NCBI GenBank assembly: GCA_004322365.1
Contig: SCTS01000005.1
Span: 67,697-131,696, forward strand
Length of the DNA: 64,000 nt
Direction of reading: 5' to 3'
Source: Patescibacteria group bacterium
GTDB lineage: Bacteria > Patescibacteriota > Minisyncoccia > Phycocordibacterales > Phycocordibacteraceae
Below, one piece after another: positions 1,484 to 26,448 of the stretch. The notes beneath the pieces are model-generated. The model was not told where the DNA came from. It ran no database searches and saw only the letters and a list, made by a program, of their open reading frames with translations. The position numbers were made by a program, and so were the translations under genes. How positions within the stretch are numbered: position 1 is the first letter of the stretch; every line of letters begins with the position of its first letter.

Positions 1484-2632
1484 CTACTGAGATTTATAAG
1501 CAGTAATGACCGAATTGATTACACTGCTCGGTATAGTTTCTGTCCCTTCAAACCAACCCCGAGCACGTTGAACCTCTTCCTTTGAAAGCGTTTTTTGAAG
1601 CTCATCAAAGAAATTACTAGCTTTCCCTGCATGAATATCAGTAAGAATTTTTTCTACGCTAGTGTGAGTATTTGACTCCTGCAACATTCCATCAACCGCA
1701 AGCATCGAAAGTGGAGCGAGCACATAATGTCCATACTGATAATCGAGATTCGGAGAGTTGGGCGCAACAATTACACTTTGTCTAATTTTCTCAAAAGCCT
1801 TTTGATCATTGAAAGGCGCTTCTTTGATCAGTGAAAAGTTTCCAGTTCTCACTGCTGTATGAACACCGTAGAGATACACAATACGCCCTGATCGCTCCGC
1901 GGAAGTGGTAAATGCTGTTTCTGCCCAAGTAGCCTCAACCTCCTGCCAATCTTCTTCTGCGAACGGCGACTGCAACTTTTGATACGGGAGTGCGCCACTC
2001 TGATGCCTGTTGTAAAGGTGCATTACTGCGTGAATGAAAAGTTCCTCTCCACGAAGACTATTCTGTGTGCGCACGAAAGCACTAACTCTTGCGCTTGGAT
2101 CTGGATACACATATGTAGCATCTTCGTCTGCATTTCCAGCAAGGCCTGCAGTAATAAGAACGACATGTTGAACTCGTTGTTCTTTAGGATCGTCATTAAA
2201 CAATTTCCCTGTGCGATTGAATGCATTCTCAATAATGGCAACATATCGCCGTATCGAACTTTCTGTTGTGGTTACGGGATATAAAATATCTACCTTATAC
2301 ATGCTCTGTTTTGGCTGAATACTCTGTAGTGTGAATGCATCGGAGCGAATAAGAACGCCTGTCAATTTCGTCTCAAATTTCGCCCACCCCGCCCCCGTCT
2401 CTATGGCACCAACAGCTTCCCAACCTTGAGGTACACACACTGGTCGGTTTTTGTGATCAAAACTTTTGAGTATGTCGCCAGACCAGATGCGATACCCTTG
2501 CGAGCCTGCAATAGGTTTTAAATAATCAGGAACTTTGTAGCACTCTCCCTTAAGAATAGGTACAAAATAAACAACTACTGCCAACAATGCGCATACAGCT
2601 GGCACGCCAATGATTACCAATACTTTCCTCAT
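1484..2632 (-). CDS. hypothetical membrane-anchored protein (N-terminal TM, HxxxH motif)
   Basis: 382-aa ORF with an N-terminal hydrophobic anchor and a FIHAVMHLY (HxxxH) motif. A TATACT -10-like box sits 7 nt upstream of the ATG, and the conserved 17-mer GTATACCCCGTGAGATA lies just upstream. Confidence 0.5.
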   Translation of the reverse strand: MRKVLVIIGVPAVCALLAVVVYFVPILKGECYKVPDYLKPIAGSQGYRIWSGDILKSFDHKNRPVCVPQGWEAVGAIETGAGWAKFETKLTGVLIRSDAFTLQSIQPKQSMYKVDILYPVTTTESSIRRYVAIIENAFNRTGKLFNDDPKEQRVQHVVLITAGLAGNADEDATYVYPDPSARVSAFVRTQNSLRGEELFIHAVMHLYNRHQSGALPYQKLQSPFAEEDWQEVEATWAETAFTTSAERSGRIVYLYGVHTAVRTGNFSLIKEAPFNDQKAFEKIRQSVIVAPNSPNLDYQYGHYVLAPLSMLAVDGMLQESNTHTSVEKILTDIHAGKASNFFDELQKTLSKEEVQRARGWFEGTETIPSSVINSVITAYKSQ

Positions 2633-2703
2633 ATAAAAAGTATACCCCGTGAGATAGGCTCAACAACAAAATTCAAGAATAACGCAAGGCGAGTCGTAAC
2701 CGA

Positions 2704-3249
2704 TTAGAGAGATCTAACCTCTATTTTATGCGGCCAAGGGAACGGCTCACCACCCTCTTCAAGTTCTAGGGTGCCTTCTGCCTGAAGACCTTTCACGCGT
2801 CCATCCAAATATTCTTTCCAAAGAATAAATTTCCCATTCTGAACTTTAGCAATGATTGCATCGCTTACCACCTCACGTTTGCCAGTTATTTTCTTTGTTG
2901 TGGCAAACTGCCACTCAACGGCAACGTCATCCCCGTTAACAACAATAGTATGGATGTACACTTTTGTATCTGTGTATGCATCCCTAAAAAACCGCAAATC
3001 TTCAAGTGTCTGCTCCTTACTCAATCGTCTTCCGGGATACGCAAAAACCATATTTTCATGCAACAACGAGGCCAATAATTCCTCATCTCCTGTCTGCCAT
3101 GCACGTGCATGCTTTGAAACCATTTGTACAATGATCTCACGGTGTATGTTCAATAATTGTTGATGGGCAAAGAAACCGAGCACACCAACAAGAACCAACG
3201 CCAATATGCTGTATACTATTTTTTTATTTTTCAGAGAATGTATATTCAT
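2704..3249 (-). CDS. SnoaL/NTF2-like (ketosteroid-isomerase-like) fold protein with N-terminal TM anchor
   Basis: 181 aa. N-terminal TM, then a ~130-aa region with the spacing typical of DUF4440/SnoaL_2 (WQTGDEELLASLLHENMVFAYPG...VEWQFATTK). Confidence 0.45.
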   Translation of the reverse strand: MNIHSLKNKKIVYSILALVLVGVLGFFAHQQLLNIHREIIVQMVSKHARAWQTGDEELLASLLHENMVFAYPGRRLSKEQTLEDLRFFRDAYTDTKVYIHTIVVNGDDVAVEWQFATTKKITGKREVVSDAIIAKVQNGKFILWKEYLDGRVKGLQAEGTLELEEGGEPFPWPHKIEVRSL

Positions 3250-3324
3250 GCCATATATTATTTCATACTTTTCTGAAGCATTGCAACTAACAATAGCTAG
3301 AGGGAGTCCTAATACTCAGACTAT

Positions 3325-3846
3325 CTACACTTCTCCTTGCGCTAGCATGGTCAGTGCGCGAGTTCGGTCGTGGTCAAGTTCAACTAAAAGAATCTGTTGC
3401 CATACTCCTCTAATCACCTTCCCGTTCTCAATAATAAGCGTCAGGTAGCTGGGAATAATTAACCCTTGTGCATGTGCATGCCCATTAACGCATTCTTGAC
3501 TCACTCCGTTTTCGTCAGGCACACAGAGATGCGTGTGTCGCTTCCCTTCTGGATTATTAACATCACGAATATCATTGTGACCATATGTTTCAGCAGGGCT
3601 AGCAAAACGGTCAAGCACTCGTTGTAAGTCAGGCACATACCCGAGGGTCGTGGCTGGTCCAATCAAATTTGGCTCATCTTCGTTCACCCACAAGCCACAC
3701 GTCGTGTGATGTGTTTGAAGTGTGAGTGTACCTGTCTGCACTCCTGAATCTGCAACAAATAAATCAACCTCGGGAGTAATATTGATAAACTCCAAACGAT
3801 GCTTTGTCTGATAGGTTAGAGTTTTCGTGACAGCTTTGTAGGACAT
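3325..3846 (-). CDS. YjbQ/UPF0047 family protein (secondary thiamine-phosphate synthase-like)
   Basis: INITPEVDLFVADSGVQTGTLTLQTHHTTCGLWVNEDEPNL matches the YjbQ family signature (I..T.EV......SG...G.......HTTA.L.INE.E..L). Confidence 0.7.
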   Translation of the reverse strand: MSYKAVTKTLTYQTKHRLEFINITPEVDLFVADSGVQTGTLTLQTHHTTCGLWVNEDEPNLIGPATTLGYVPDLQRVLDRFASPAETYGHNDIRDVNNPEGKRHTHLCVPDENGVSQECVNGHAHAQGLIIPSYLTLIIENGKVIRGVWQQILLVELDHDRTRALTMLAQGEV

Positions 3847-15252: not shown

Positions 15253-18200
15253 CTATCGAGCGGAAGAGGATTGTGACAAAGGCTGAGCTACTAAGTTTTG
15301 TATGAAAGCTATCGTTGCGGTGCCAAGTATGCCAGTTCCACGAGTAAGACCAAGAGGCGCGAGAATATCAGTAGCGTGCGCTTCCTGGAACTTAACTAAC
15401 GCGTTATAGGTCATTGGACCAAAGTGGTTCGTCTCACTCCCTAATGCACCACTGCCTCGCGGTGCCAGTATGAAACCTTGCGCGTTGAGAAATTTTTGTA
15501 ACTGGCGTACATCTTCTCCAATAGAACCAGCACGCAGAGAACGAGTAAATAGTGCCGTCTGAGAATTTACCGCGACTATATGTTTTTCTGGTGTGCTCGT
15601 TGCGACAGTGTTAGAGACGCTGTCGTTGTTTGTGTTCTTTGGAACAGAATACAGAGGCAGTGTAGGAGCTACTGATCCCTGACAACCACCTTCAGGCAGG
15701 CTACTGTTCCATCCTGGTGACATTGGACCAGAACACCAAAGGAGCCCACCACTTGTACTAGTGCTCGAACTGCTCGACGATTCGGTCGTACCAAACAAAG
15801 CAAAATCTGAAAATGCGGTCGTGCTGCATGTAACTGTTTTAGCTCCCGTGTCGACCGAACAGTCAGAAAGCGCACTCCATGTGGAACTATCGTAACGGTA
15901 GATAAGAAGCGATGTCTCAGTAATTCCAACTACATCGCTCGATGTATAGGAAAGCGTTACAGTAAGAGCGGTTGAAAATGTAGCGAGTGTCGTCGTCGCA
16001 TCAGTGAGTGCAACAAGGTTATATACGGTACTTCCTGCACGCGTCTTACCGCTCACCGTACCCGCAGAAGCAAAGAAAGACGTGCCGTCTAAAAGATGCG
16101 CTTGGAACGTTGCTGAGCTTGATGTTGCAGTGAAGGACGTTGGTACAGTGAGCGTAAGCCTGCCTTCTGTGAGTGTGCCTCCTGCTGTAGTTGTAATAGT
16201 ACCCGCGCCAGTCGAAGATACTACCGCCCCTCCAGTGCAACCGATTGTGCGAAATGTCGCGGCACTACTGGTTGCTGTATTTGATGAAGCGTCGGTGCTC
16301 TCAACATTGTAGTAATATCGCGCGCACGCTTTGAGTCCAGTCAACGTTACAGAGTGGCTCGTTGTGCGTGGTGAGGTGTCCGTCTCTGGCGTCGAAGTTC
16401 CATAACTTGAGATAATGCCAAAATTTACTTTTGTTGAAGCAATTTCGTCAGTCGTCCAAGTAATCGTTGCGGTGGTAGAAGCTGTTGTTGTGGCAACAGC
16501 CGAAATAGCTGTGCTCACATTATCTACAGTAAACGAAACGCTAGTCGAAGTTGCGTAGTTACTTGAAGTATCACGAGCAACCGCAAATGCACTGTGACTA
16601 GCACTGGTGGTTGCCGTTGAATCCCACACAATGCCGTACGTTGATGTGGTATCTTCACTCCCCTGCAACACTCCGTCAACGTAAAACGATACTCCTGCCA
16701 CACCAATAGTGTCGGATGCAGTTGCGGTAAGTGAGACGCTCGCACCTGAAACAGTAGCGCTCGCTGTAGGCGCAGTAAGCGATACAGTGGGCGCCGTCGT
16801 ATCAACTGTCGCTCCATACTCGTACGCACCAATATCAACCGACGCAACTCGCGCGCCACCACGCTGGTCGAGCGTTGGTACCGATATTGATCCGTTTGTT
16901 CCTCCATATCCGCTGTTAACGGCAATAGAAGAAGCGCTGGTAATGGCAAGTGTCTGTGTTTTCAAGACACCATTATCTGCAAGAGTAGAATCTAAGCTGA
17001 GAGTGCCACTGCCACCATTTGAATTAGTAAACGTGCCATCTCCAGAACCTGATGATCCTTGCAAATCGACATAGGTACTGGTAGCTACCGTTATGTTTGA
17101 ACTTGAGTATTTCCCAAAAATGTTCGCGCCATTGTCAGTATAGGTTCCTGAACTGCCTTTGTAGATATCGTAGAAAGAACCAGTAAGTGCAACGCCAGAC
17201 TTATAGTTGCTCGAAATTATATTGTTCTTGAGCTGTACGGTATAGGAAGTATCTGGACTAAACCAAAGACCTGCTCCATTTGCCGTCCCGCCGTTTTGAA
17301 TATCGTTATACGCAATAGTGGAGTTGGTAATGCTACCGCTACCGCTCCTGTATGCCACACCACCACCGCCAACAGTGGCAGACGACGCTTGTTGTGTGTT
17401 GAATGCAACAGTTGAATTAGTAATGTTCATCGGGCCCGTAGTGGTGGTACCACTCCACAATCCACCTCCCTGAGAAACACCCGTGTTGTATGAAATCGTA
17501 CTGTCGATAACCGTGAGCGAACCACCGTTTGTAGAATCCTGCTGAGCTACGCCACCACCATACCCGTTAACATAATTGTTCGTGATGAGCGCTCGCTGTA
17601 TTGTTGTCGTGCCTTGACTATAGATACCACCACCCGCAGAACTTGAACTCGTGATACGTCCATGTCGGATAGTAACATCATTAAACGTAACCACTTTCCC
17701 AGTCGATGTCGTGAACACACGTCGATCACCGGTGGTAGAAGCGGTCGCAGACTGAATGATGGTACTGCTGGCGCTTTGTCCCTGAATAATCAACTCTTTG
17801 CCGATAGTATACCCACTAGTCGCTATGTCCCCTGTCTCTCCTGCATCCGTCCATGTGAATGTGCCCGTAAGATTGAGCGTGTCACCAGCGCTTGCGGATG
17901 TATATCCTTTGTGAAAGCTCGCATACGGGGTACCTGAAGAACCATCTCCCGTCGAATCGTTACCGGTCGAGCTGTTTATATAGAGCGTTGTAATAGTATG
18001 CGATGCTTGCGTGTTTGGGTTGTTCGACGCAGTCGCAGTCTGATATACCTCTGTTCCTGAGGTTACGCCGTTATACTCAAATACTTGAACGATATATGTT
18101 GTGGCACCAGTGAGCCCTGTCACCGTGACGCTCGAGCCTAGTCCTTCATATATTGCGTACCAACCAGACGAACCAATCTGTGTTCCTGAGCCAAAAACTG

Positions 18201-19590
18201 ACGATGCTGTGTATGCAGTGCCATCAACTGGTGACGCCGTACCACTTGATGCAGCTTTCATAAAAACAACACGGCGCGAACCATTGCCTGCAGTCCAACC
18301 CACAGTCATTCCGTAGTATTCAACTGAACTGAACGAGACACCGCTTGCCTGTGTAGAGGGAGCGCTGATAGTAAGTCCTGTCCCGTTGTACTCAAACGAA
18401 CCAATATCAGTCGCACCAGAACGCGATGCGCCACGTTGGTCAAGTGTGGGTACGGTTGACGTTGCACCATTGCTACCGGTTGAACCATTGTTGATAGCAA
18501 TCGAGCCTACAAGAAGTGCCCACGTAGGAGTTGATGTTGCGTTATCGTTTCTACTTGCACCAGTATCGAGATTGAGTGAGCCAGTCGTTCCTACACTATA
18601 CAAAGTATAGACACCATTACCGTCACTGTCCGTCCAATCGCCAGTTCCTGTAAATGATGTACCACCCGGTCGACCGATAATGTTGTATCCGTTGTCGGTA
18701 ATGGTGCCCGAGGATACACGGAGGTCATTATAAGTCGCACCATATGTTGTCGAGGTATTGCCGGCAATGAGTGTATTCTTGAGATACACGCCACCAGTCG
18801 TCTCCATACCAAGTCCACCACCGCCCGCAGCGGTGTTACCAACAATACTCACATTGGTAATACTCATCCAGCCACCACGTACATGCACGCCACCACCATT
18901 AAGGTAGCCACTCGTCGACGTTTGGCGATTCCCATAGATGGTTGAATTTTCCACAACAAAGTAACCGCCCGCAGCGATGTTGTAATCATTCAAAAGACCA
19001 CCGCCCATGTACGAAACGGTGTTGTTATAGACAGATATGCGCTGTGCGGTCGTTGTGCCGACGTTGTCGATACCGCCACCACCACCACCCGCAGTATTGT
19101 TGTTAATTTCACTGTCCGTGATCGTGAGCGTTCCACTATTAGCAATACCGCCACCGTAGTAACTGGTCGAAGTAATGCGACCATGCCGAATGTTCAACTT
19201 ACTCATCGTGACAACAACCCCTGTTGAAATTGTGAATACGCGCCGATCGGCGGTAGTAGAAGCGCTTGCCGCTTGAATATATGTTTGATCACTCCCTTGA
19301 CCCTCAAGAGTTAGGTTCTTCCCAAGTGTATACCCAGTTGTCGCCGCGTCCCCTGTTTCAGTTGCGTCTGTCCAAGTGAGAGTTCCAGTGAGATTGAGTG
19401 TATCTCCCGCACTCGCCATTGTGTAACCTTTATGAAAGCTTGCATATGGGGTACCTGATGAACCATTTCCTGTCGAATCGTTGCCCGTCGAACTATTAAT
19501 GTAAATCGTTGCCGCAGAAGCGACCGCGGGTACTACTATGCAAAATAAAAAAATTACAACAAAAACAACCGTTGCACGGAAGCGACGCAT
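15253..19590 (-). CDS. giant secreted cell-surface protein (1446 aa): signal peptide, two tandem ~500-aa right-handed beta-helix modules, FN3/Ig-like region, C-terminal peptidoglycan-binding (PG_binding_1) domain
   Basis: Start reassigned to MRRFRATVVFVVIFLFCIVVPAVASA (signal peptide) at 19590. Repeated blocks IYINSSTGNDSTGNGSSGTPYASFHKGYT...IRHGRITS and LYINSSTGNDSTGDGSSGTPYASFHKGYT...IRHGRITS. NNTAGGGGGGI-type beta-helix turns. C-terminal GEDVRQLQKFLNAQGF...MTYNALVKFQ is a PG-binding domain. Confidence 0.8.
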   Translation of the reverse strand: MRRFRATVVFVVIFLFCIVVPAVASAATIYINSSTGNDSTGNGSSGTPYASFHKGYTMASAGDTLNLTGTLTWTDATETGDAATTGYTLGKNLTLEGQGSDQTYIQAASASTTADRRVFTISTGVVVTMSKLNIRHGRITSTSYYGGGIANSGTLTITDSEINNNTAGGGGGGIDNVGTTTAQRISVYNNTVSYMGGGLLNDYNIAAGGYFVVENSTIYGNRQTSTSGYLNGGGVHVRGGWMSITNVSIVGNTAAGGGGLGMETTGGVYLKNTLIAGNTSTTYGATYNDLRVSSGTITDNGYNIIGRPGGTSFTGTGDWTDSDGNGVYTLYSVGTTGSLNLDTGASRNDNATSTPTWALLVGSIAINNGSTGSNGATSTVPTLDQRGASRSGATDIGSFEYNGTGLTISAPSTQASGVSFSSVEYYGMTVGWTAGNGSRRVVFMKAASSGTASPVDGTAYTASSVFGSGTQIGSSGWYAIYEGLGSSVTVTGLTGATTYIVQVFEYNGVTSGTEVYQTATASNNPNTQASHTITTLYINSSTGNDSTGDGSSGTPYASFHKGYTSASAGDTLNLTGTFTWTDAGETGDIATSGYTIGKELIIQGQSASSTIIQSATASTTGDRRVFTTSTGKVVTFNDVTIRHGRITSSSSAGGGIYSQGTTTIQRALITNNYVNGYGGGVAQQDSTNGGSLTVIDSTISYNTGVSQGGGLWSGTTTTGPMNITNSTVAFNTQQASSATVGGGGVAYRSGSGSITNSTIAYNDIQNGGTANGAGLWFSPDTSYTVQLKNNIISSNYKSGVALTGSFYDIYKGSSGTYTDNGANIFGKYSSSNITVATSTYVDLQGSSGSGDGTFTNSNGGSGTLSLDSTLADNGVLKTQTLAITSASSIAVNSGYGGTNGSISVPTLDQRGGARVASVDIGAYEYGATVDTTAPTVSLTAPTASATVSGASVSLTATASDTIGVAGVSFYVDGVLQGSEDTTSTYGIVWDSTATTSASHSAFAVARDTSSNYATSTSVSFTVDNVSTAISAVATTTASTTATITWTTDEIASTKVNFGIISSYGTSTPETDTSPRTTSHSVTLTGLKACARYYYNVESTDASSNTATSSAATFRTIGCTGGAVVSSTGAGTITTTAGGTLTEGRLTLTVPTSFTATSSSATFQAHLLDGTSFFASAGTVSGKTRAGSTVYNLVALTDATTTLATFSTALTVTLSYTSSDVVGITETSLLIYRYDSSTWSALSDCSVDTGAKTVTCSTTAFSDFALFGTTESSSSSSTSTSGGLLWCSGPMSPGWNSSLPEGGCQGSVAPTLPLYSVPKNTNNDSVSNTVATSTPEKHIVAVNSQTALFTRSLRAGSIGEDVRQLQKFLNAQGFILAPRGSGALGSETNHFGPMTYNALVKFQEAHATDILAPLGLTRGTGILGTATIAFIQNLVAQPLSQSSSAR

Positions 19591-19877
19591 GGGTAAAAGT
19601 ATAGCAAATTTTAAAAACAAAATTGAGGTATTGAAAGACTTAACAAGAGTGATTCCGATGCTCCACTTGCAAGCTTTTGTTTTGCTCCACAAAAGCTTCC
19701 CTGCAGGTCGAGTCCCGTGCTCCGCTCGTAAGCTCTGTTGTTTGCACAGAGCTTCCCCGCTGTCGCATCAAAGAAAAAGCGGGTAGGACTCGCCTCTCGC
19801 ACTCCTGTGCTCGAAACCTTCACTCCTTCACAGTCGTTGCGGCCCGCGGTTCGAGTCCGTACGCGCGCGGGTACGTA

Positions 19878-19919
19878 TGATTATAAAATCCCCTCTATAT
19901 AGAGGGGATTTTATAATCA
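19878..19919. terminator. 42-nt perfect palindrome TGATTATAAAATCCCCTCTAtaTAGAGGGGATTTTATAATCA immediately 3' of the tRNA (likely tRNA terminator)
   Basis: Exact 20-bp inverted repeat, seen directly. Confidence 0.6.
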
Positions 19920-19921
19920 AG

Positions 19922-20214
19922 CTCCGCGGGTAGGACTCGAACCTACAACCAACTCCTTACACGTGATCCCCTATTACGAAGGGCGTGGACTATATCATCA
20001 TCCGATCTGGATGCGAGGCGCTTCGACCTTTCGGTCTACTCCCTTTCGGGATAGTCTCTACACCTTCTCCAACAAATCGTCAGAGCTTGGCTCGGGATTG
20101 CCCATCCTTTTTATAGGATTAGGGTTTCCCCGAATTCACCTCGTTTTTCAATCCCGATTCCTCGGGAAGGCTGCCTTTGGACAGGGAGCTGCTCTACCAT
20201 TGAGCTACCGCGGA
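19922..20214 (-). tRNA. tRNA gene interrupted by a ~220-nt intervening sequence in the anticodon loop (putative group I intron). Anticodon probably GUU (Asn), alternatively UGU (Thr), depending on the splice junction.
   Basis: On the minus strand: 5' TCCGCGG-TA-GCTC-AATGGTA-GAGC-A-GCTCC-CTGT | ~221 nt | TAA-GGAGT-TGGTT-GTAGG-TTCGAGT-CCTAC-CCGCGGA-G 3'. The exon halves form a canonical cloverleaf. The intervening sequence contains P7-like AGACUA ... UAGUC elements and ends in G before the 3' exon. Confidence 0.6.
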
Positions 20215-20296
20215 ATGTACACAATCAACAGAGTTGATTGGTGATTATTATATACCCTGACTTGATGATTCAGCAAACTTAACACTAGGTGTTATA

Positions 20297-20647
20297 ATGT
20301 TGCAAATGATAAAGGAATGTAACAAGCACGGACAAACAAAACATTTTCCACGCCCTGATGGAGCTTTTCGGTGTGGTAAATGCGCTTCTCAGTGGGTAAT
20401 ACAAAATAGACGTCGAAAAAAAGAAAAACTAGTTGAGGAATTCGGTGGAAAATGCGCCATATGCGGATACAAAAAATATGCAGGGGCATTAGATTTTCAT
20501 CACCTAGACCGTAAAACAAAATCATTTGCCTTAAGTGTTAAAGGTCTATCCTATTCATGGGACAGTATTCTTCAAGAAGCTAAGAAATGTGTTTTAGTAT
20601 GCAAAAATTGCCACACCGAAATTGAAGCGGGCATTATAAAGCTCTAA
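20297..20647 (+). CDS. free-standing HNH endonuclease with N-terminal zinc ribbon
   Basis: CNKHG...CGKC zinc ribbon; HNH core CAICGYKKYAGALDFHHLDRKTK...VLVCKNCHTEIE. Divergent from the intron-containing tRNA, ~80 bp away. Confidence 0.7.
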   Translation: MLQMIKECNKHGQTKHFPRPDGAFRCGKCASQWVIQNRRRKKEKLVEEFGGKCAICGYKKYAGALDFHHLDRKTKSFALSVKGLSYSWDSILQEAKKCVLVCKNCHTEIEAGIIKL

Positions 20648-20662
20648 AAAGAGCTCCATTTA

Positions 20663-20929
20663 TTAGACCTTATGAAGCCAGTTCCAGATTTTTGCGAATA
20701 CAAAACCCACAACTCCGCCCACCACAAAAGTCATCAGTATTAGAGAAAGTGAAGCGATAAGATTGAAGGTGTCTACAAGATACACGGCACGAATCATGTG
20801 TAACCAGAAAATGAAATCAAGCACTGCTTGTGCTACTCCAAACGCCACAAGTGCTGACCAGAGAACATGTACACCCGCAAAGAAAACACCAAGAGTAAGT
20901 GCTGTTTTTTTAGGATTGAGTTGCGTCAT
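20663..20929 (-). CDS. small integral membrane protein
   Basis: 88 aa with three hydrophobic helices. Confidence 0.4.
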   Translation of the reverse strand: MTQLNPKKTALTLGVFFAGVHVLWSALVAFGVAQAVLDFIFWLHMIRAVYLVDTFNLIASLSLILMTFVVGGVVGFVFAKIWNWLHKV

Positions 20930-25813: not shown

Positions 25814-26380
25814 TTAATATTTTCTAATCACGCCACGCACAATTGCGGTGATAGTGAGTTCATCTTCAGGATAAATTGGCTTGTATGCGCTGTTAGCTGG
25901 TTCCAAATAAGGCTTCCCTTTTTTCATACGGAAATATTTCATCGTCCATCCGCCATCAACTTCGGCAATAACTATCTCCCCTTCTTTTGCGACAGTTGCT
26001 CGCTCTGCAATAACCATGTCACCCTCTACAATACCTGCATCTTTCATAGAGTCACCTTTCACCCGAAGTAAATATGTCTGCTCACGGTCACGGATAAGAT
26101 AGTCATCTAATGAAATACTATCAAGTACCTCCTCTTCAGCAGTTGCAGGCATGCCGGCTTCTACAAGACCTAAGATTTTTATTTCTCCCAAAACTGTTGT
26201 AGGAATGAGGCGTCCTCGGCGGTCTTTCTTCAACTGCCCTCGACGCACTAAACGCTCAACCAATTTGAATACGGAATCCTTGGAGCGGAGACCTGTGATA
26301 TCCATTATTTCCGCGTACGACGGCATGCGCCAACGAGACCTATAAAACTGAAGAATCTCTCTCAAATACGATGTATCCAT
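25814..26380 (-). CDS. lexA: LexA-family transcriptional repressor (S24 peptidase)
   Basis: N-terminal winged HTH (SYAEIMDITGLRSKDSVFKLVERLVRRG), then a cleavage site and S24 catalytic VKGDSM ... K dyad. Start trimmed to the internal MDTSYLRE. Confidence 0.8.
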   Translation of the reverse strand: MDTSYLREILQFYRSRWRMPSYAEIMDITGLRSKDSVFKLVERLVRRGQLKKDRRGRLIPTTVLGEIKILGLVEAGMPATAEEEVLDSISLDDYLIRDREQTYLLRVKGDSMKDAGIVEGDMVIAERATVAKEGEIVIAEVDGGWTMKYFRMKKGKPYLEPANSAYKPIYPEDELTITAIVRGVIRKY

Positions 26381-26448
26381 ATACTTGCAGTATAAGCGAA
26401 CGAACGTTCGCCGTGCAAGATTAGTTATCCACTCCTCCCCTAACAACC

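Follow-up and report, generated by a model that had tools for sequence, protein, structure and literature searches.

Group I introns in the transfer RNA (tRNA) genes of Patescibacteria have been described by Nakagawa et al. (2026, mSystems; preprint 2025; PMC13011429), who found them between positions 35 and 36 of tRNA-Asn and tRNA-Asp. They assigned 25 of 28 introns at this site to subgroup IA, and one tRNA-Asn and one tRNA-Asp intron of the class, from other Patescibacteria, spliced themselves precisely in vitro. Four long tRNA-Asn introns encode HNH (PF01844) endonucleases. The search for open reading frames (ORFs) was confined to introns longer than 500 nucleotides (nt), and the survey concluded that most Patescibacteria tRNA introns have no homing endonuclease genes. 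On this ground the survey considered the introns to move horizontally only to a limited extent, and it gave no answer to why such reduced genomes retain them. A free-standing HNH gene beside the tRNA is not mentioned there. Here we analyse a 64-kb stretch of contig SCTS01000005.1 of a Patescibacteria group bacterium (assembly GCA_004322365.1; G+C content about 44%), which as a whole is called the window below. It contains a tRNA-Asn(GUU) gene split by an ORF-less intron of the published class and, next to it, a divergent and free-standing HNH gene. We propose that this gene may encode a homing endonuclease acting in trans with the intron.

The window locus shares with the class of Nakagawa et al. 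the host gene, the insertion site, the phylum, the IA-type features and even the mislabelling of the gene as tRNA-Thr(UGU) split at 33/34 (PMC13011429). The window intron is a further member of this published class, and the intron itself is not new. The same survey makes outdated, for this phylum, the statement of a preliminary description of the locus that intron-containing tRNAs are rare in bacteria. The long HNH-encoding introns of Nakagawa et al. correspond to loci that we also found and that form clade 2 below. What sets the present arrangement apart from the class as described is that, across Paceibacteria, a homologous HNH gene accompanies an ORF-less intron at a distance of about 90 nt.

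Two other kinds of system are close to this one. In collaborative homing (PMC3984707), as here, an ORF-less self-splicing intron occupies a conserved gene and the endonuclease gene lies just outside, and the related lineages with the endonuclease inside the intron are those that the “invasion” model predicts. The differences are that here the setting is a cellular chromosome and a tRNA gene, instead of a phage protein-coding gene, and that the pairing here is old and under purifying selection, with cleavage at the insertion site presumed from homology. Free-standing endonuclease genes interspersed with tRNA genes are also known from T4 SegB, a GIY-YIG enzyme, and from T5 F-TflI/II/IV (Akulenko et al. 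2004, cited in PMC2330249). The phage relatives of the window protein occupy arrays of this type. SegB belongs to a different nuclease family from the window HNH, these phage systems involve no introns, and the likeness to the T5 enzymes is one of genomic setting. Finally, the PD-(D/E)XK endonuclease of another bacterial tRNA intron (family according to PMC13011429) is likewise tied to a group I intron in the anticodon loop and has its target in the anticodon region, but it is encoded inside the intron, in a different tRNA and a different intron subgroup.

The split tRNA-Asn gene and its group I intron

The two exons form the cloverleaf already recognised in the preliminary description, with acceptor TCCGCGG/CCGCGGA, D arm GCTC-AATGGTA-GAGC and T arm GTAGG-TTCGAGT-CCTAC. 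The interruption of the anticodon arm, put there at about 221 nt, is exactly 221 nt (19960-20180) in the Asn register. When joined, the exons make a molecule of 72 nt that ARAGORN identifies as tRNA-Asn(GUU) with a canonical cloverleaf; moving the junction by 2 nt turns it into tRNA-Thr(UGU). Both anticodons had been put forward, and the second is also the one given by ARAGORN in intron mode (-i, output Thr(tgt) i(33,221)). We reject this label and keep Asn(GUU) with the insertion at 35/36. Across 61 distinct homologous introns, collected with an exon finder that imposed no terminal-G condition, the Asn register gives a terminal G in all 61, whereas 15 would end otherwise in the Thr register. 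Moreover, P1 sets its U.G wobble at U35. Uninterrupted tRNA-Asn(GUU) genes, closely resembling the joined exons of the window, occupy the equivalent place beside the HNH gene at seven loci (L011-L013, L035, L047, L056 and L062; comparison loci are given by such numbers throughout), which again speaks against Thr. The mislabelling of these genes by ARAGORN and tFind as Thr(UGU) 33/34 was documented earlier, and the Asn assignment with a 35/36 insertion was reached independently for this intron class (PMC13011429). Judged by its sequence and that of its relatives, the gene is tRNA-Asn(GUU) with a group I intron between positions 35 and 36. It is the sole asparagine tRNA gene found within the window (20214-19922, minus strand), and default ARAGORN returned no tRNA across the whole 64 kb. 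Since default tRNA finders miss or mislabel the split gene, genomes of this group can seem to be without tRNA-Asn.

The suggestion that the insert is a small group I intron was borne out by the Rfam covariance model. Intron_gpI (RF00028) matches 19967-20245 on the minus strand with 68 bits, against a gathering threshold of 50 (E = 4e-15). It is the only Rfam family above threshold in the window, and homologous introns score 70.8, 65.5 and 76.6 bits. The AGACUA...UAGUC pairing of P7 and the terminal G are both present, and the P1-P9 core is complete, including the P3/P7 pseudoknot, with support from covariation across 18 homologues. In the alignment of these 18 introns, for which we drew by hand a structure of 61 pairs in 13 helices, standard pairs occupy 95% of the cells, compared with 35-45% when partners are slid by 1-3 columns. 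Changes on both sides occur in 32 of the 61 pairs, and none of 500 shuffles matched the observed covariation score. P2 shows compensatory changes, as do several of the helices in Table 1. The four exon pairs of P1, including the U.G wobble at U35, are invariant in 18/18 sequences, and intron nucleotide +1 covaries with its P1 partner (C:G in 25, G:C in 10 and A:U in 4). The extra P7.1 and P7.2 hairpins between P7 and P3' are an arrangement typical of subgroup IA; some relatives, for example L005/L033 with an intron of 179 nt, are without them. The conserved, covarying core speaks against a degraded pseudo-tRNA insert. Taken with the counts given above, a tRNA-Thr(UGU) with an intron at 33/34, or a dead pseudo-tRNA carrying a decayed insert, is hardly credible.

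Two other Rfam results were set aside. The model takes the leader hairpin 20222-20240, which precedes the tRNA, for P1; we reject this, since the real P1 is at 20171-20184. A low-threshold search of 19400-20400 gave sub-threshold matches to the rnk leader, ncS011 and microRNAs, driven by the terminator palindrome, and these we take as chance.

The HNH gene and its linkage to tRNA-Asn

The ORF of 116 amino acids noted earlier (20297-20647, plus strand) exists, but its homologues start at the second ATG (20306), giving a protein of 113 amino acids, and the first ATG falls within the -10 box. The 116-residue ORF is divergent from the tRNA and lies 82 nt from its 5' end. Its reported zinc ribbon and HNH motifs are real: an N-terminal CxxH...CxxC is followed by a CxxC...HH...CxxCH core, and both are invariant in 25 aligned homologues. 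C53, C56, H68, H69, C102, C105 and H106 are invariant in these 25 and also in the phage and clade-2 relatives. Profile comparison gave phrog_2255 (E = 1.7e-25 over residues 4-113), phrog_3106 (3e-23) and six more HNH families of PHROGs. Searches of NCBIfam and, with the HNH profile, of PDB sequences returned nothing and nothing relevant, respectively, and exact-sequence look-ups found neither the 116- nor the 113-residue protein on record. The AlphaFold2 model has a predicted local distance difference test (pLDDT) score of 92.5, with strands at residues 65-69 and 98-102 and a helix at 103-110. A word-index search returned about 200 proteins of ~113 amino acids with 68-85% identity, and those few for which a source is named belong to Paceibacteria lineages. 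By genome, the nearest relative is a Candidatus Paceibacterota metagenome-assembled genome, whose HNH protein is 97% identical to that of the window; the window is accordingly part of the chromosome of a Paceibacteria-type member of the Patescibacteria (CPR). The ratio of nonsynonymous to synonymous substitution rates (dN/dS) of the gene is 0.03-0.13 and dS is saturated between most species, so the gene is old in these lineages and strongly constrained.

A terminase-associated HNH protein, which the preliminary description had kept as the alternative identity, is rejected: the gene lies on a bacterial chromosome, and its phage relatives sit in tRNA arrays, not beside terminases. As a separate observation, residue 110 (codon 20624-20626) is an invariant Glu in clade 1 and a His in the phage and intron-encoded relatives (CHREIH to CHTEIE).

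The family was compared over 80 GTDB species-representative loci with an HNH alignment, in which tRNAs were sought with ARAGORN and the custom exon finder and proteins were clustered by identity, and over 80 relatives of the window HNH on viral contigs. The cellular loci fall into two clades. Clade 1, of Paceibacteria, comprises proteins with the zinc ribbon and with 60-97% identity to that of the window. Clade 2 has no zinc ribbon, is 47-61% identical over the HNH core, and comes from loci labelled Berkel-, Doudna-, Woese- and Komeilibacteria, among others. In clade 1 the HNH gene is always free-standing and lies within about 120 nt of a tRNA-Asn in 47 of the 48 informative loci (244 nt in L008). 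The usual layout is divergent with a spacer of 72-120 nt, as in the window; in some loci the gene is instead co-directional just upstream of the tRNA, and in one it is downstream. The linked tRNA-Asn has an ORF-less intron of 179-337 nt in 43 cases and is intronless in 6. The genes flanking the pair vary from locus to locus, and at L043 the HNH gene is present with no tRNA-Asn within 2.5 kb. Overall, a split gene beside a related HNH protein recurs in dozens of species, so the arrangement is not due to chance.

All 20 clade-2 loci are associated with tRNA-Asn as well. In L059 and 15 other loci the ORF lies in the P1 loop of a 525-604-nt intron at 35/36. The ORF of L061, also in the P1 loop, comes with a TATAAT box of its own, and P1' and P2 are formed by its final codons. 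Four further clade-2 genes are just upstream of the tRNA and not inside the intron. The viral relatives are 34-54% identical to the window protein, and 51 of the 80 lie within 150 nt of some tRNA gene, including Arg(UCU), Ile(UAU) and Met(CAU). Among the closest full-length ones, which share the zinc ribbon, 4 of 5 have an intronless tRNA-Asn within about 70 nt. For example, in Cronobacter phage CR3 (L289, 1489-1845) the annotated HNH endonuclease begins 17 nt after tRNA-Asn. The proteins of CR3 and of Bacteroides phage DAC15 (L288, 1504-1863) are 44-50% identical to the window protein, have the zinc-ribbon and HNH architecture, and are encoded inside tRNA arrays. Such a distribution is what one would expect if the family consists of homing endonucleases that have specialised on tRNA genes.

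There are also signs that the association passes through cycles of gain and loss. About eight HNH copies are decayed or truncated (L053, L055, L056, L065, L069, L082, L083 and L087). Split tRNA-Asn genes with no HNH gene nearby (L088, L118 and L136) came from an unbiased metagenome scan with the pattern GAGCNNNTCCCTGTN{5,14}GCAGC, whose matches were mostly random; the 4 of 80 loci that are true split tRNA-Asn genes are too few to measure the frequency of the intron without HNH. At the stem pair 31:39, the intronless alleles beside a clade-1 HNH gene, among them L011, L012, L013, L035 and L056, have G:C or A:U in 5 of 6 cases, and about 43 of 45 intron-bearing ones have C:G. This variant might protect the intronless alleles, or it might be phylogenetic signal, since the lineages are not independent.

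Promoters, traces of rearrangement and neighbouring genes

The coordinates of the features are collected in Table 1. Between the -10 box of the tRNA promoter and the tRNA lies the leader hairpin 20222-20240, and an equivalent TATAAT/TATACA box is found in the tRNA-HNH spacer of other loci. The HNH start codon is 7 nt past its own -10, and the mRNA is therefore probably leaderless. Over this extended -10 lies a palindrome, TAACAC-N3-GTGTTA, which has a single match in the window. With at most 1 mismatch it occurs 22-35 nt before the ATG in 45 of 51 clade-1 loci, in any layout, with 2 other matches in 243 kb of clade-1 loci, and there is none in the clade-2 or viral loci. Being limited to clade 1, it co-occurs with the zinc-ribbon form of the protein. 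The position and conservation of the palindrome suggest that it is probably an operator keeping the level of the nuclease low, possibly through autorepression. I-TevI is reported (Edgell et al. 2004) to hold down its own synthesis through an operator that overlies its promoter and to which it binds. The palindrome could act in a similar way, which we mention as a lead only. Another lead, noticed post hoc, is a match of 7 nt: read as its reverse complement, one half-site with its flanks (CTTAACA) equals the anticodon loop TGTTAAG. The reading of the palindrome as a LexA box was set aside, since there is one copy in 64 kb and none near the lexA-like gene (25814-26446).

Table 1. Features of the split tRNA-Asn gene, its intron and the adjacent HNH gene, in window coordinates
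Feature	Position	Strand	Basis or remark
tRNA-Asn(GUU) 5' exon, positions 1-35, end CUGU	20181..20214	-	exon identical in L008-L010 and several other species
tRNA-Asn 3' exon, positions 36-73, start UAAGGAGU, discriminator G	19922..19959	-	CCA not encoded
Group I intron, 221 nt, ORF-less, IA-like with P7.1/P7.2, omega G at 19960	19960..20180	-	RF00028, covariation
P1: exon CUGU and intron C pair with GGCAG; U.G wobble at splice site	20171..20184	-	alignment
Catalytic core	19988..20143	-	hand-drawn structure and covariation
P3	20137-20143 with 20014-20020	-	invariant or nearly so
P4	20128-20133 with 20092-20097	-	compensatory changes
P5/P5a	20101-20124	-	hand-drawn structure
P6/P6a	20063-20090	-	P6a: compensatory changes
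P7	20052-20056 with 19988-19992	-	invariant or nearly so
P7.1	20040-20051	-	GAAA loop
P7.2	20025-20036	-	GAAA loop; compensatory changes
P8	19999-20013	-	compensatory changes
P9 hairpin	19968..19983	-	both-sided changes in 4/5 pairs
Probable -10 box of tRNA promoter, TATATAAT	20247..20254	-	read from sequence
Palindrome TAACAC-TAG-GTGTTA, overlapping the HNH extended -10, probable operator	20280..20294	.	conservation
Extended -10 (TGT TATAAT) of HNH promoter	20290..20298	+	sequence
HNH endonuclease gene, 113 amino acids: zinc ribbon (residues 1-23), basic helix, HNH core	20306..20647	+	homologue starts, profiles
Terminator-like hairpin overlapping HNH stop codon	20640..20655	+	sequence
Perfect 21+21-nt palindrome without loop, probable bidirectional terminator just past tRNA 3' end	19878..19919	.	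scores as terminator on both strands
Exact 14-nt second copy of T-arm/acceptor segment CGAGTCCTACCCGC, 147 nt downstream of tRNA gene	19779..19792	-	sequence match

Several loci carry traces of rearrangement around the tRNA. Between the window and L008 the tRNA and intron are 99.3% identical, compared with 89% for the HNH region and 88% for glpX, and the 3' flanks are not homologous. The two introns differ at 1 of 221 nt (99.5% identity) and the HNH genes have a dS of 0.48, which is suggestive of a recent intron transfer, at a rough Poisson probability of ~0.03 that depends on the intron substitution rate assumed. L008 also has a 153-nt insert (2266-2420) between the tRNA 5' end and the promoter, which keeps the old 5' end TCCGCGGTA. 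In L009 and L010 the whole tRNA-HNH module (19921-20665 in the window) stands in inverted orientation with respect to the aldolase/glpX block, with breakpoints at the module ends. Downstream of the tRNA terminator of the window lies a GC-rich spacer (19700-19880; fold z-score -1.9; no match to any Rfam family), where the second T-arm/acceptor copy of Table 1 is accompanied by an inverted T-loop copy at 19848-19858. This spacer may be a scar of recombination or integration. A second GATCCCTACCCACGGAGC lies about 130 nt downstream of the tRNA in L003 (3420-3530; record shared with L026), and in L088 (about 1780-1810), which has no HNH gene, the 3' half of another tRNA-Asn allele lies just upstream of the tRNA. 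In L005-L007 a serine recombinase with Resolvase and Recombinase domains (2085-3767), in opposite orientation, ends ~50 nt beyond the 3' end of the split tRNA-Asn, which suggests an integrated element at this tRNA. Such traces are consistent with tRNA-Asn having been broken and repaired repeatedly, and some could also stem from integrases acting at tRNA 3' ends.

The neighbours of the tRNA-HNH pair in the window are genes for a class I aldolase, a GlpX-type bisphosphatase, an MFS transporter and a LexA-like protein. Two observations concern other parts of the sequences. The window encodes at 15253-19590 (minus strand) a very large secreted protein of about 1,445 amino acids, with the likely start MRRFRATVV followed by a signal peptide. 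It is Gly/Thr/Ser-rich and beta-helix-like and has an internal duplication of ~530 amino acids, in which the stretch YINSSTGNDSTG..GSSGTPYASFHKGYT occurs twice. In L005, a Yanofskybacteria-like contig, the Rfam LOOT RNA (RF03000) matches at 734-854 on the minus strand with 73 bits, ~3 kb from the tRNA-HNH pair.

Possible roles of the HNH partner

We consider a free-standing homing endonuclease acting in trans with the ORF-less intron to be the best reading of this locus, with a probability of roughly 60%. Collaborative homing, or a decayed association of intron and endonuclease gene, had been raised in the preliminary description, and the support that it has gained here is comparative: other Patescibacteria encode relatives within the intron at this very site, and the relatives in phages are part of tRNA arrays. 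Following the steps known from the literature, the intron would excise itself from the pre-tRNA by attack of a G after U35, at the P1 U.G pair, and the terminal G would then direct exon ligation, restoring the anticodon loop CUGUUAA. The HNH protein would recognise the DNA of an uninterrupted tRNA-Asn gene, at or close to the anticodon loop. With its site split by the intron, the resident gene would escape cutting, and in the few intronless cases the 31:39 stem variant may protect instead. A cut in an allele lacking both intron and HNH gene would be repaired from this locus, so that both would be copied together, as in trans or “collaborative” homing. If the intron were lost precisely, the tRNA-Asn gene, usually the only one in related complete genomes, would become cleavable again, and this would help to explain why the intron persists.

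Several points weigh against this proposal. We infer the target site of the HNH protein solely from position and homology, and because clade 1 and the intron-encoded clade 2 have different N-terminal domains, their specificities may differ. For a gene outside the tRNA to home, homology must extend past the tRNA; the flanks differ between species, and such transfer across species would therefore be inefficient. Six clade-1 loci have the HNH gene beside an intronless tRNA-Asn (full length in five, cut to 88 amino acids in L056), so the intron is not needed for coexistence with HNH. Low dN/dS with saturated dS points to long vertical inheritance, unlike that of a fixed, purely selfish endonuclease. 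The family assignment has weak spots too. With Pfam, the window protein gave AI2M-like_HNH at 17.6 bits, below the threshold of 23, and no PF01844 match; of three clade-2 relatives, two pass the PF01844 threshold of 21.4 (21.7 and 22.7 bits) and the third scores 20.2. The top Foldseek matches in PDB are all HNH proteins (Gme HNH, Cap5, T4 endonuclease VII and Cas9 HNH), with E values of at least 0.1 that are not significant.

Some of these same data would suit a descendant of a homing endonuclease that has been kept for a host function, with the intron only marking self. Candidate functions would be restriction-like defence or competition against DNA with an uninterrupted tRNA-Asn, DNA repair, or regulation. 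Strong purifying selection (dN/dS of 0.03-0.13 at saturated dS, and 70-85% amino acid identity across many Paceibacteria lineages), a dedicated and conserved probable operator over the promoter, and an intact gene beside intronless tRNA-Asn in five loci are all in keeping with domestication, and phage tRNA arrays do hold intronless tRNA-Asn genes that such a nuclease could meet. We nevertheless regard it as unlikely. The decayed copies and the split tRNA-Asn genes without HNH make the protein dispensable in some lineages, there is no defence-island context, the target is without support, and the tight linkage to the tRNA is something that a homing element needs and a defence gene does not. One may also imagine a self/non-self system, in our view a long shot, in which the nuclease would cut incoming uninterrupted tRNA-Asn(GUU) and the intron would make the cell's own single gene immune. 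The incoming DNA would be phage tRNA arrays, or neighbour or host DNA taken up by competent episymbionts. If this were true, the intron would play the role that methylation has in restriction-modification and its precise loss would be lethal, which would explain both the persistence of the intron in streamlined genomes and the housekeeping-level purifying selection on the HNH gene.

The linkage could instead be historical, that is, an ancestral module, for example from a phage tRNA array, whose nuclease now targets something unrelated to tRNA-Asn. This seems quite unlikely to us, for the pair persists while both flanks change, the module even inverts as a unit, and the divergent, co-directional and in-intron layouts all keep the HNH gene within about 120 nt at nearly every locus, where chance adjacency would amount to roughly 4e-4 per locus in a ~1-Mb genome. 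What can be said for it is that phage relatives abut many tRNAs, including Arg(UCU), Ile(UAU) and Met(CAU), and that L043 has the HNH gene without a tRNA-Asn within 2.5 kb. Among LAGLIDADG homing endonucleases, a different family, some also serve as maturases, and the HNH protein could by analogy be a maturase of the intron or a processing factor of pre-tRNA-Asn, tightly linked and probably co-regulated with the intron-bearing gene. Such a helper is very improbable: the catalytic HNH residues are invariant, the gene is kept beside intronless tRNA-Asn and in intron-free phage arrays, and the class splices itself in vitro without protein (PMC13011429).

The presence of an HNH partner beside the tRNA changes the published conclusion that these introns are without endonucleases. 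A free-standing, conserved partner with a probable operator, homologous to the intron-encoded enzyme, appears to be new in the literature that we searched. Rather than being lost, the endonuclease gene of Paceibacteria lies immediately outside the tRNA gene, and its product is a homologue of the enzyme that other lineages encode in the intron. The “endonuclease-less” introns thus are likely to retain a neighbouring partner for mobility or maintenance. One protein family and one target gene offer a series of layouts, from phage tRNA arrays to a place beside an intronless tRNA, beside an ORF-less intron and inside the intron, and this series is of direct relevance to the assembly of mobile group I introns. 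The nuclease is small (113 amino acids) and well defined, and it probably has a conserved DNA target as well as an operator. A homing endonuclease acting in trans would also give a testable reason for the persistence of these introns, since their loss would re-expose the cleavage site.

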